From assembly GCA_934130545.1 (NCBI GenBank), contig CAKOYD010000001.1:138343-202342 (forward strand): a stretch of DNA of 64,000 bases. The letters run 5' to 3'. A program made the position numbers and the translations under genes. Positions 9,983 to 25,460 of this stretch are shown piece by piece (position 1 is the first letter of the stretch; each line of letters opens with the position of its first letter). This DNA is from an uncultured Bacilli bacterium (GTDB lineage Bacteria > Bacillota_I > Bacilli_A > RF39 > UBA660). The notes under the pieces are model-generated. The model saw nothing but the letters and a program-made list of their open reading frames with translations. It had not been told where the DNA came from and searched no databases.

Positions 9983-10422
9983 GTGATGAAAAAAATAGTT
10001 ATAAGTTTACTTATTATTTTAATTATTGGTGTTTCTTTAATATTTACAGCATTTAATAAGAAGAACGAATCTAGTTCGTTCAAGAAAATTACGGTAGCAG
10101 AAGTTGCACATAGTGTCTTTTATGCTCCCCAATATTTAGCTTTATCTTTAGGATATTTTGAAGATGAAGGATTAGATATTGATTTAGTACTTGCTAGTGG
10201 TGCTGATGCGGTTATGGCAGCAGTGCTATCAGGAGATGCAGAGATAGGATTTTCTGGTACAGAAGCAACTATTTATGTATATAATGGTGGTGAGAAAGAT
10301 TATGTAATGACTTTTGCCGGTCTTACTCAGAAAGATGGTAGTTTCTTAGTATCTAGAGAAAAGATTGATAATTTTACTATTGATATGTTAAAAGATAAGT
10401 ATATTATCGGTGGACGTAAGGG
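9983..10422 (+). pseudogene. ABC transporter substrate-binding protein (NMT1/SsuA/TauA family), N-terminal fragment interrupted by element A
   Basis: Signal peptide/TM plus NMT1-like N-terminus ending ...IIGGRKG. The frame then runs into element-derived sequence. It continues in frame at 12921 after in-silico excision (GGRKGGMPEM). Confidence 0.75.
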
Positions 10423-10450
10423 GTTTCTTGTTAAATGTGATAGTATATAG
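10423..10450. repeat. element A left att arm (ttcttgttaaatgtgatagtatatag)
   Basis: Matches the reverse complement of 12892-12917 at 20 of 26 positions, immediately abutting the core. Confidence 0.65.
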
Positions 10451-11942
10451 TTATGTTTTTGTCTTTATCAATTGTTAGATAATTAATAATACTACTTAAC
10501 ATATTTTTATTTATATCTTTTAAGTTAATAAAATTATCGATAATAGTGTCATAGTCGTACTTTTGCTTGTTAATAATATTCATTTTCTTTAATAATTTAT
10601 TTTCTTTATCCACAAGTGTGTTGATATTATTAGTTATTTCTTTAGTGTATTCTATATATTCTTGAGTGGTTATTATATTATCTAGTTTATCATAATAGAG
10701 TTGTTTCTTTTTTGATAGTAAGTTGTTTTTATCTAGTTTTATAGAATTTAGACTAGTGGTTAGTGAAGTTTTTATTTTTTTGTTAGTGCTAGTTTGTAAG
10801 ATTTCTTTTAAGTAGACTTTATTTATGTTAGATTTTAAATATTTGCTTATTTCTTTTAGGATGACTTGTTCTAATAAATTATAATTAATAGTATGAGGAG
10901 TGCATAGTTTGTACTTACTGTATTTTCGGTAGTATGCGCAACTTGTATAACTATTATTACCTATTTTAGATATTGTTATTTGGTGCTGACATTCATAGCA
11001 CTTGATAAAACCTTTGAGTAAATAGTTAGATGATTTAGATTGGAGATTTTTATTTTTAGATAAGTTATTATTTACAATATTAAATATTTGCTTGTCAATG
11101 ATTGGTAAATGAGAGTTTTGGGTAATAATCCAATTTTCTTTGGGAGTTTTTATTTCTTTTTTTATTTTATAATTTATTTTCTTTCTTATTCCTTGATATA
11201 ATGATCCTGTATATGTGGGGTTAGTTAAAATATCTTTAATGGTCTTGCTACTCCATATGCCGGTAGAGTGTCTATGTAAATTAGCATATACACTAGGAGT
11301 TGGAATGTTTTTAGAGGTTAATATATTGGCAATTTGACTCAGACCATAACCAAGATAAGCTAAATTAAATATTTGTTTTACTATTTGTGATGAATTATCA
11401 TCAATTACTAGTTTATAACGATTATTAGGATCTAGTTTATAGCCGTATACGGCTTTCCAACCTAAAAATAAGCCTTGCTCTTTTTTTGCCCGAAGACTTC
11501 TTCTTACTTTTTTGGAAGTATCTTTAGCATATTGATCATTAAAAACGGCTTTAAATGGTGCAATGTCATTACTAGTGCTGTCATAGTAGGTGTCAATATC
11601 ATCTAATATAGCGATATATCTTATATTATGCATGGGAAAATATTTTTCAAGATACTCCCCTGTTTTAATATAGTCTCTTCCTAATCTAGAATAGTCTTTT
11701 GTTATAACACAGTTAACCTTGTTTTCTTCAATATCGTTAATTAATTTTTTAAAAGATGGTCTATCAAAGTTTGTACCAGAATAACCGTCATCAATATATT
11801 CTTGATATATTTGGTAATTGATATCTAACTTTTCAAGATAATTTAGAATAATACTTCTTTGGTTAGAGATGCTTTCACTTTCTTCTTTATCTTTATTATC
11901 GCTATGAGATAGTCTGATATAGATACCTATTTTATATATCAT
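10431..11942 (-). CDS. large serine recombinase (resolvase domain + recombinase domain + zinc ribbon + coiled coil)
   Basis: N-terminal IGIYIRLSHSD...SISNQR...DDGYSGTNFDRP...YSRLGRD resolvase catalytic motifs and a C-terminal Cys cluster. Stop is 10 bp from the left junction. Confidence 0.85.
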   Translation of the reverse strand: MIYKIGIYIRLSHSDNKDKEESESISNQRSIILNYLEKLDINYQIYQEYIDDGYSGTNFDRPSFKKLINDIEENKVNCVITKDYSRLGRDYIKTGEYLEKYFPMHNIRYIAILDDIDTYYDSTSNDIAPFKAVFNDQYAKDTSKKVRRSLRAKKEQGLFLGWKAVYGYKLDPNNRYKLVIDDNSSQIVKQIFNLAYLGYGLSQIANILTSKNIPTPSVYANLHRHSTGIWSSKTIKDILTNPTYTGSLYQGIRKKINYKIKKEIKTPKENWIITQNSHLPIIDKQIFNIVNNNLSKNKNLQSKSSNYLLKGFIKCYECQHQITISKIGNNSYTSCAYYRKYSKYKLCTPHTINYNLLEQVILKEISKYLKSNINKVYLKEILQTSTNKKIKTSLTTSLNSIKLDKNNLLSKKKQLYYDKLDNIITTQEYIEYTKEITNNINTLVDKENKLLKKMNIINKQKYDYDTIIDNFINLKDINKNMLSSIINYLTIDKDKNITIYYHI

Positions 11943-12077
11943 TATCTAGTCCATAATATTTATTAAAGTATTCTACTAAGTAATAAGATAATAGTTTGTT
12001 AATGTCAAAATTTATTTCAGGATGGATATTTATAATATTCATAGTATCACCTAGTTTAATATATGAGTAAAAAAATA

Positions 12078-24319: not shown

Positions 24320-24347
24320 GGATGTGTTTATGATATTCAAGGAGTTG

Positions 24348-24679
24348 CTTTAATTAGGACACTAGCAATTAAACCGGATATATTGCTTTTGGATGAGCCA
24401 TTTTCTGCTCTTGATTATCAATCACGTTTAGCAGTATGTGATGATGTATATAGAATAATTAAAAAAGAAAAGAAAACAATTATTATGATTACTCATGATA
24501 TTGCTGAAGCTATTTCTATGGCTGATAGAATTGTAATACTTACTGGCAGACCCGCAATGGTAAAGAAGATTATGGATGTTAAGTTAACTAATTCTAGTAC
24601 TCCTATTAATAATAGAAAGTGTGTAGAATTTAGTAAGTATTATGAAAGTATATGGAAAGAGTTGGATTTTCATGTATAG
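24348..24679 (+). pseudogene. ABC transporter ATP-binding protein, C-terminal fragment
   Basis: ALIRTLAIKPDILLLDEPFSALD (Walker B) and ITHDIAEA (H-loop). In frame with, and directly after, the recombinase stop. Confidence 0.8.
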
Positions 24680-25460
24680 TGATGAGTATAAAAAATATTT
24701 GAAGAAGAATAAGATTAATAATTATTTAATTAAGTTTACTCAGATTAGTATATTAGTTTTATTATTACTTTTATGGGAATATTTAGCAAGAAATAATATA
24801 ATTAATTCTTTTATATCTTCTTCTCCTTCAAGAGTAATTAAGGCTATTATAAATTTATATAAGCAAAATAATTTATTTAATAATATATGGATTACGGTAT
24901 ATGAAACATTAATTAGTTTTATACTAGGAACACTTATTGGAACGTTTATAGCAATTGTTCTTTGGTATAATAAATTTATATATAAAGTAGTTGATCCTTA
25001 TTTAACAATATTAAATAGTTTACCTAAGGTAGCGTTGGGTCCAATTATTATTATTTATAGTGGTGCTAATATAAATTCAATTATTACTATGGCTTTACTA
25101 ATTTCGGTAATTATAACAATCATAACGGTATATAATGGTTTTGTGAATACTGATTATAGCAAAATTAAATTATTGAACTCTTTAAAGGCTACTAAAATGC
25201 AAATTCTGAAATATGTAATTTTACCAAGTAGTTATTCAACTATTATTAGTTCTTTAAAGATTAATGTTAGTATGTCTTTGATTGGGGTAATTATGGGAGA
25301 GTTTCTAGTTTCGAAAAAAGGAATTGGATATCTAATTAATTATGGTTCACAAGTTTTTAACTTAGATTTAGTGATAGCGGGAATAATTATTTTAATGATT
25401 GTGTCTTATCTTATGTATTTAGCTGTGCTTTATATTGAGAAAAAGTTAATTAGGGAATAA
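24642..25460 (+). CDS. ABC transporter permease (SsuC/TauC-like, BPD_transp_1)
   Basis: Six TM helices with an EAA-like loop. Follows the ATPase gene. Confidence 0.8.
   Translation: MKVYGKSWIFMYSDEYKKYLKKNKINNYLIKFTQISILVLLLLLWEYLARNNIINSFISSSPSRVIKAIINLYKQNNLFNNIWITVYETLISFILGTLIGTFIAIVLWYNKFIYKVVDPYLTILNSLPKVALGPIIIIYSGANINSIITMALLISVIITIITVYNGFVNTDYSKIKLLNSLKATKMQILKYVILPSSYSTIISSLKINVSMSLIGVIMGEFLVSKKGIGYLINYGSQVFNLDLVIAGIIILMIVSYLMYLAVLYIEKKLIRE

Follow-up and report, generated by a model that had tools for sequence, protein, structure and literature searches.

Why would an importer operon that is broken apart by three mobile elements keep its coding sequence intact? The operon in question lies at positions 9983-25460 (+ strand) of a 64,000-nucleotide stretch of genomic DNA (hereafter the window; G+C ~26%) from an uncultured Bacilli bacterium of the RF39 lineage. 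It consists of three genes encoding a substrate-binding protein (SBP), an ATP-binding cassette (ABC) ATPase and a permease, and three elements, A, B and C, each encoding a large serine recombinase (LSR) of its own, interrupt the first two of these genes. An initial annotation of the window had described three independent LSR integrations, all reversible in silico, and had suggested either an insertion hotspot or regulated gene disruption. The explanation that we favour, with moderate confidence, is that the elements are long-resident occupants of a clade-wide LSR landing pad and that the importer would be restored by their precise excision, an arrangement of the type known as regulated gene integrity.

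Reconstitution of the importer genes

Pfam and family matches identify the SBP as NMT1/SsuA-like, the ATPase as NitT/TauT-type and the permease as a BPD_transp_1 protein. The operon is cut into five pieces of SBP and ATPase coding sequence (Table 1), three belonging to the SBP and two to the ATPase, and all pieces and elements lie where the initial annotation had placed them. Intact orthologous operons elsewhere encode an SBP of 333, an ATPase of 248 and a permease of 261 residues. Rejoined across elements A and B, the SBP of the window has 334 amino acids (aa) and shows 68-76% identity at 93-100% coverage to intact 332-334-aa orthologs, with no indel at either junction, and the rejoined ATPase (248 aa) differs at 2 residues from the naturally intact ATPase of a related strain. 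Both alignments are colinear and gap-free at the junctions. The Pfam domains NMT1 and ABC_tran each give one continuous match across the junctions, and they do so only after reconstitution; in the split state an element adds 1-9 read-through codons followed by a stop, and the domain is not restored by element sequence.

The permease gene, the final one of the operon, gave no match in an exact look-up with its longest open reading frame (ORF), and judged from orthologs its true start is ~10 codons downstream of the start of that ORF. An Rfam scan found no riboswitch 5' of the SBP gene that would name the substrate, and NCBIfam matches were all under the cut-off.

Recombinases, attachment sites and crossover points

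The three LSRs all contain the domains PF00239 (Resolvase), PF07508 (Recombinase) and PF13408 (Zn_ribbon_recom), and their catalytic R-x-S motifs are IYIRLS (LSR A), YARVS (LSR B) and IYLRLS (LSR C). Mutual identities of 25% (A-B), 31% (A-C) and 25% (B-C) agree with the earlier statement that each element carries a different LSR gene. The closest solved structure is the TnpX catalytic domain for LSR A (2MHC, E 2.6e-22), chain 3G13 for LSR B ("putative conjugative transposon recombinase" by deposition, with SprA as a distant match), and both 3G13 and TnpX for LSR C. In every element the LSR gene sits at one end and points outward, and a conserved short ORF lies directly 5' of it, overlapping the LSR start in A and B.

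The attachment sites attB (empty site) and attP (circle junction) were rebuilt for each element, and dyad symmetry was scored over 30-base arms. The attP arms are symmetric at 21/30 positions around GG in A, 18/30 around GA in B and 20/30 around GT in C, and the attB arms at 10-12/30, which is chance level. The attB sites fall inside conserved coding stretches, at GGRK/GGMPEM for A, DFVTLF/EPNA for B and MRQRV/ALIR for C (a slash marks the junction). All three joins are in frame and free of indels, and there is no target duplication beyond the shared core. The predicted excision junctions are TATCGGTGGACGTAAGGGTGGTATGCCCGAGATG (attB_A) and CACTTTATACTAGAAGGGGGTTTCTTGTTAAATG (attP_A), TTTGTAACACTATTTGAACCTAATGCAACAGC (attB_B) and CCCTTACACTAACAGATGATAGTGATATAGTA (attP_B), and GCGTCAAAGAGTTGCTTTAATTAGGAC (attB_C) and GATATTCAAGGAGTTGTTTGAATATAAT (attP_C).

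Two of the three cores proposed earlier stand. The core GG of A lies within a shared GGG and gives the in-frame join CGTAAG/GG/TGGTATG; the 7-base match AAGGGGT was rejected as a core because a join there shifts the frame, which leaves GGG as the usable overlap. For C, the stretch GAGTTG is indeed shared by both ends, and attP symmetry sets the crossover at its GT. The core ACACTA and the join DFVTL/TEPNA given for B were wrong. The crossover of B is moved to the GA at 13065-13066 / 17264-17265, three bases to the right of ACACTA, because the corrected join DFVTLF/EPNA (VTLFEPN) restores a Phe that is invariant in nine aligned orthologs, because the B ends in two related lineages introduced below (L006 and L007) have GA, and not ACACTA, in common, and because the attP symmetry is centred on it.

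By their domains, att symmetry and exact insertion, A, B and C fit large serine recombinase integrative elements, as far as sequence can tell. Each would have been put in by its own LSR, through recombination of the dyad-symmetric attP with a specific attB in conserved codons. The three independent integrations and their precise reversal in silico are upheld, for C also by a natural empty site. No phage genes were found in elements A to C, where PHROGs matched just the LSRs and the XRE-type repressor of A; LSR A had no relative among the viral contigs scanned with it; neither the plasmid nor the phage records contained a megablast match to the whole region; among the ORFs scanned, genes for a relaxase or for conjugation were not evident; and a repeat search over the region returned AT-rich chance matches only.

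Table 1. Features of the interrupted importer operon and of elements A, B and C (positions in the window; core bases of attP in square brackets)
Feature	Position	Strand	Description
SBP fragment 1	9983-10422	+	residues 1-147; NMT1/SsuA-like, N-terminal membrane anchor; 3' end = attL_A core GG (10421-10422)
Element A	10423-12919		2497 bp; attP = TATTATCACTTTATACTAGAAGG[GG]GTTTCTTGTTAAATGTGATAG
LSR A	10431-11942	-	503 aa; Resolvase + Recombinase + Zn ribbon; motif IYIRLS; stop codon 8 bp from element end
orf36 of element A	11932-12042	-	overlaps LSR A start; intact ORF in L004, L006 and L007 (71-94% identity)
XRE-type helix-turn-helix (HTH) repressor	12097-12336	-	dN/dS 0.01-0.02; very strongly conserved
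Divergent XRE/orf69 control region	12337-12457		near-invariant over four lineages
orf69	12458-12667	+	small conserved protein, no function assigned
orf75	12651-12878	-	small conserved protein, no function assigned
SBP fragment 2	12920-13066	+	residues ~148-196; 3' end = attL_B core GA (13065-13066)
Element B	13067-17265		4199 bp; attP = CTTTCCTACCCTTACACTAACA[GA]TGATAGTGATATAGTATGAAAG
LSR B	13164-14579	-	471 aa; motif YYARVS
orf44	14576-14710	-	overlaps LSR B start; kept in L004, L006 and L007 (56-95% identity)
AgrA-like LytTR response regulator	14826-15569	+	cargo of B
AgrC-like GHKL histidine kinase	15547-16848	+	cargo of B; dN/dS 0.21-0.39
Cold-shock protein (Csp)	16974-17183	+	cargo of B; dN/dS 0.01-0.05; highly conserved
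SBP fragment 3	17266-17683	+	residues ~197-334
ABC ATPase fragment 1	17676-18088	+	residues 1-137/138, up to LSGGMRQRV; 3' end = attL_C core GT (18087-18088)
Element C	18089-24345		6257 bp; attP = GATGTGTTTATGATATTCAAGGA[GT]TGTTTGAATATAATAAAGACAC
MMPL/RND-type membrane transporter	18137-21850	-	1237 aa; cargo of C
TetR-family regulator	21940-22560	+	cargo of C
orf36 of element C	22646-22756	+	directly 5' of LSR C; kept in L094, L096 and L040 (42-67% identity)
LSR C	22769-24319	+	~516 aa; TnpX-like DUF4368 tail; probable AUU start at 22769 after Shine-Dalgarno AGAGGTGA
ABC ATPase fragment 2	24346-24679	+	residues ~138-248
Permease	24672-25460	+	~262 aa; BPD_transp_1; intact

Occupancy of the three sites in related genomes

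Four lineages could be compared, traced through close homologs of LSR A: the window itself, L004, L006/L094 and L007. L004 (97% nucleotide identity to the window) contains A and B and has an intact ATPase gene; L006/L094 (~89%) contains A, B and C; and in L007 (~86% in host genes) A includes an additional gene, B is present, and the ATPase site of C is taken by a C-type element whose cargo differs. The insertion points of A and B do not differ between the window, L004, L006 and L007, and in every contig examined each element was found at one and the same site. The ATPase junction of L004 equals the predicted attB_C base for base, that is, it is a natural empty C site. By exact look-ups the intact, C-free ATPase allele is present on 16 contigs, and the cluster members listed include more than 280 contigs with the split form, so the empty-site junction that the initial annotation had predicted exists for C. 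The LSR A of the window itself occurs on 28 contigs, its cluster has 196 members and more than 200 LSR A sequences were seen overall. One LSR A variant, P0243 (18 contigs), is accompanied by A and B in all seven places shown and by C where the contig reaches. C is polymorphic, and A and B are fixed at assembly level.

No intact SBP of more than 76% identity is present in a collection of 5.8 billion protein clusters, nor does that collection contain the exact reconstituted SBP alleles. A contig scan with the reconstituted SBP returned only intact orthologs of 55-75% identity and missed the closely related split loci, because matches were ranked by best segment; it did supply the data on ATPase occupancy used below.

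Two local irregularities were seen around the operon. L004 and the window are 97.1% identical to the left of the C site (7185-18123) and only 90.8% to the right (24337-26196); the drop suggests a homologous replacement of the right flank, possibly tied to gain or loss of C. In locus L100 (13735-15004) rlmN, 5' of the operon, seems disrupted or replaced, with a gap and a 107-aa ORF versus the expected 341-aa RlmN.

Age of the elements and selection on the split genes

In-silico excision yields an intact 334-aa SBP and 248-aa ATPase in every lineage, with no stop or frameshift. Pairwise Nei-Gojobori estimates give a ratio of nonsynonymous to synonymous divergence (dN/dS) of 0.06-0.11 for the split SBP at a synonymous divergence (dS) of 0.06-0.81, and of 0.03-0.06 for the split ATPase (dS 0.12-0.52). 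For the element genes the ratio is 0.085-0.125 for LSR A (dS 0.75 and 1.09, for the window versus L006 and versus L007, respectively, here and in the pairs that follow), 0.11-0.19 for LSR B (dS 0.74 and 1.10) and 0.01-0.39 for the regulator, kinase and Csp cargo of B (dS 0.37-0.83), and it was also obtained for two host genes, encoding a UvrD-like helicase (0.03-0.05; dS 0.49 and 0.80) and VanY (0.03-0.06; dS 0.59 and 1.16). The element genes have a dS no smaller than that of the host genes beside them, and all genes rank the lineages alike. This is read most simply as insertion of A and B ahead of the divergence of these lineages, followed by vertical inheritance.

Outside the coding sequences, the attP_C arms are conserved in five lineages, and the divergent XRE/orf69 control region of element A hardly varies although synonymous sites have diverged by 0.7-1.0. 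Selection has thus preserved not only the split genes but also the LSR genes with their coupled small ORFs, the attP arms and the repressor/operator region of A. The initial suggestion of a regulated disruption gains support from the fixation of A and B, from their host-like divergence and from purifying selection on the split genes.

These data bear most directly on the possibility that the operon is simply a young pseudogene operon, permanently inactivated. Serine integrase insertion is always exact, so in-frame rejoining might just reflect LSR precision, and reversibility in silico alone proves no function. However, the four lineages, at dS up to 0.8, have a dN/dS of 0.03-0.11 and show neither stops nor frameshifts, which contradicts it. 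In a neutral simulation the SBP ORF stayed intact in 0/5000 replicates at d of at least 0.4 and in 0.02% at d = 0.2, which puts the neutral probability at essentially zero, and we regard permanent inactivation as highly improbable.

Reuse of the operon by other elements

The initial suggestion of a hotspot is supported by reuse of sites A and C across species. A sister species (SBP 73% identical) has intact 333-aa SBPs alongside forms beginning exactly at MPEM, and its site A (L089-L092) is occupied, polymorphically, by a larger element whose attP arm is related. Site C holds elements of related type that differ in cargo in the window, L094, L096, L007, L093 and L040, other cargo being inserted at the same ATPase codons in L093, L040 and L007. 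Recombinases of the LSR C type, at 61-66% identity, make up very large clusters. Among 77 species-representative loci with an ATPase match, the match is truncated or split in 21, and many of those contigs break just past site C. Repeated integration at the same position by a tight integrase clade is therefore seen at sites A and C, while site B is used inside the clade only. The operon emerges as a clade-wide landing pad for an exchange of elements whose cargo is defence-like, signalling or transport-related.

Some further insertions were noted at or near these sites. The larger element of L089-L092 encodes a KAP NTPase, a Macro domain protein, an OLD-TOPRIM/AAA protein with a UvrD-like helicase (Gabija-like) and an HTH regulator. 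In L069 (8631-11619) an unrelated LSR family is found at the same MRQRV/AL codons of the ATPase, and a further ATPase site near residue 193, HD(I/L)AE/AIS, is occupied in L065 (11579-13454) and L025 (~11585). In L007 (9714-10712) an extra YhcG/DUF1016 gene lies between LSR A and the element end, which brings element A there to 3845 bp versus 2497 bp in the window.

Repeated use raises the question of whether a landing pad is all there is, with an importer that is dispensable in the gut, conserved codons that merely offer a reliable attB, and recent insertions into genes that are still intact. That the same sites are used in many species, with varied cargo and often polymorphically, is what one would expect, as are the 21 of 77 loci with a truncated or split ATPase match, the degraded LSR of L065 and the polymorphism of C within the window's own species. 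Against it stand the fixation of A and B and the lack of any intact SBP above 76% identity to set against more than 200 LSR A sequences. Element dS that equals or exceeds host dS, in the same ranking, does not fit recent insertion either, and a dispensable gene would have gained stops. We consider a landing pad without restoration of the importer unlikely.

How the importer could be restored

The intact state of the split genes suggests that the importer is produced in some cells, since a gene broken for good would not have remained intact at such divergence. The simplest route would be precise attL x attR excision, catalysed by the LSRs, of every element present. The small ORFs 5' of the LSRs may serve as directionality factors, or no helper may be needed, as with TnpX. 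TnpX needs no helper protein for either excision or insertion, which makes spontaneous reversible excision plausible if these TnpX-like enzymes behave alike. After excision an element could reintegrate, giving a reversible switch or bet-hedging, or it could be lost in a cell type that does not reproduce.

Several observations weigh against excision as the explanation. Of the other junctions that the initial annotation had proposed to look for, none was seen: at assembly level A and B are always integrated, with no excised attB_A or attB_B and no attP circle junction. Restored function would need two or three simultaneous excisions, which calls for coordination or high excision rates. PHROGs gave no family match for the small ORFs, and no directionality factor was identified among them; LSR C has no ATG, GTG or TTG start in the window. 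The 1.9-kb element of L065 has its LSR in two ORFs and looks degraded, so an insertion in the operon can also be a dead end. Finally, the case for vertical inheritance is built on four lineages and pairwise estimates and not on a full phylogeny.

Excision could also be thought of as a three-input lock with no link to development, in which three orthogonal LSR modules must all excise and the importer is gated by a signal-dependent or bet-hedging rearrangement that has been kept through speciation. The Agr-like, peptide-sensing two-component system of B is divergent to LSR B, and under such a lock each LSR module would have its own conserved control region. We regard this version as quite unlikely.

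Relation to known systems of gene interruption

Regulated gene integrity by integrative elements has been described for comK, sigK, spsM, gerE, hlb, mlrA, nifD, fdxN and hupL (Mageeney et al. 2020, PMC7192596). As in those cases, an integrase element splits a conserved domain without restoring it, the position is reused by a tight integrase clade, and excision would rebuild the gene. What sets the present locus apart is that one operon of three genes is locked by three LSRs unrelated to one another, that an ABC importer is the target, that the support is evolutionary and not experimental, and that the host is uncultured.

A resemblance to skin in sigK and SPbeta in spsM had been pointed out in the initial annotation, and it holds for the mechanism only, since the target is not a sporulation gene. 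Like gin in gerE of Bacillus cereus (Abe et al. 2017, PMC5595907), skin and SPbeta (PMC5025042, PMC4191935, PMC5499854), the elements are non-phage or defective, combine an LSR with a small accessory factor (here a candidate), lie inside a coding region and would be removed exactly, and element A, whose 2.5 kb comprise an LSR, a repressor and small ORFs, resembles gin in its simplicity. However, gin, skin and SPbeta interrupt sporulation genes and excise in the mother cell, whereas here the targets are an NMT1/SsuA-like SBP and a NitT/TauT-type ATPase. The cargo is also unlike theirs, with an Agr-like two-component system and a cold-shock gene in B and MMPL and TetR genes in C.

Heterocyst elements of cyanobacteria interrupt nif, fdxN and hupL genes (PMC4874684), and nifBHDK of Calothrix is found in 13 parts (PMC11249958). 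In the importer operon, too, several elements with their own recombinases interrupt one functional unit, all would have to leave, and inheritance appears to be vertical. The cyanobacterial systems belong to another phylum, have a known terminal cell type and a restoration that was shown experimentally, and their recombinases are mostly tyrosine-type (XisA, XisC) with XisF as a serine recombinase, whereas all three are LSRs here.

These two groups of systems suggest developmental excision in a terminal cell, such as a sporulating mother cell, under a compartment-specific sigma factor, with the germ line keeping the elements. A and B are always integrated and yet the gene is selected, which is the signature of excision only in non-reproducing cells, and heterocysts provide a precedent for multi-element interruption of one operon (PMC4874684, PMC11249958). 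The uncultured orders RF39, RFN20 and ML615J-28 are, moreover, predicted to contain species that sporulate as well as species that do not (PMC10868615). The target, however, is a nutrient importer with no known part in sporulation, and no sporulation-specific genes were recognised in the 64-kb window; we find a terminal-cell programme quite unlikely.

A further relationship is with the clostridial transposons Tn4451 and Tn5397 (recombinases TnpX and TndX), given that the catalytic domain of LSR A is nearest to TnpX, that LSR C has a TnpX-type DUF4368 tail, and that all are small non-phage elements with a terminal, outward-reading LSR gene. Transposons of this type use GA crossovers, insert at many target sites and carry resistance and mobilisation genes. 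In contrast, only B has GA among the elements of the window (A has GG and C has GT), each element has one fixed site, and no mobilisation gene was seen.

Content of the elements and neighbouring genes

Besides its LSR, element A contains an XRE-type repressor and three small ORFs and nothing more. Its orf36 is a candidate directionality or regulatory partner of LSR A. In the XRE/orf69 control region a palindrome, ATATTAGTA-N10-TACTAATAT, covers the ribosome-binding site of the XRE gene, and the region also contains an extended -10 promoter, TGGTATAAT.

In element B, orf44 is a candidate partner protein of LSR B. The AgrC-like kinase is only 53% identical to that of L007 and outpaces the response regulator and the cold-shock gene, a pattern that would suit a receptor of peptide signals under diversification; among the ORFs listed for the element, genes for AgrB and AgrD were not evident. 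The conserved divergent region between orf44/LSR B and the response regulator contains a direct repeat, TTATGTGATA(A/G)A, in two copies 40 bp apart (14729-14780), which may be an operator and is, taken alone, without statistical significance.

The gene for LSR C likely starts at an AUU codon at 22769. A mechanical ORF list starts it only at 22874, with the catalytic motif VGIYLRLSS in frame upstream. A Shine-Dalgarno sequence (A/G)GGGTGAT followed, after five bases, by ATT ATT is conserved in three lineages (window 22763-22790, L094 ~7975-8010, L096 ~3665-3700), two of which have no ATG, GTG or TTG before the catalytic serine, and it is this conservation together with the missing canonical start that points to AUU. 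The idea that LSR C is a truncated pseudogene was rejected, given the upstream in-frame motif and the conserved Shine-Dalgarno and ATT ATT. An AUU start could hold LSR C levels low.

A fourth LSR gene is present elsewhere in the window (38347-40011, - strand, 554 aa, 34% identical to LSR A) and lies near defence-like genes (region 37000-48300), with which it may form one island. Near it are a C5 DNA methyltransferase identified from sequence motifs (42626-43795) and a metallophosphatase, and HamA (46847-47761) together with a DEAD/ResIII helicase (44824-46863) looks like a Hachiman system.

Implications

The locus is a multi-element case of a known kind of system, unusually clean but not categorically new, and it adds evolutionary evidence that such locks are opened. 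To our knowledge, genes switched by element excision amount to few cases, most of them tied to terminal differentiation. Its three natural and mutually distinct LSR/attB/attP sets, with crossovers resolved to the base, are raw material for genome-engineering tools. The evolutionary evidence, by itself, indicates that split genes can stay functional for long, and if the favoured explanation is true, the idea of regulated gene integrity would extend to an ordinary nutrient importer in a widespread uncultured lineage of the human gut.

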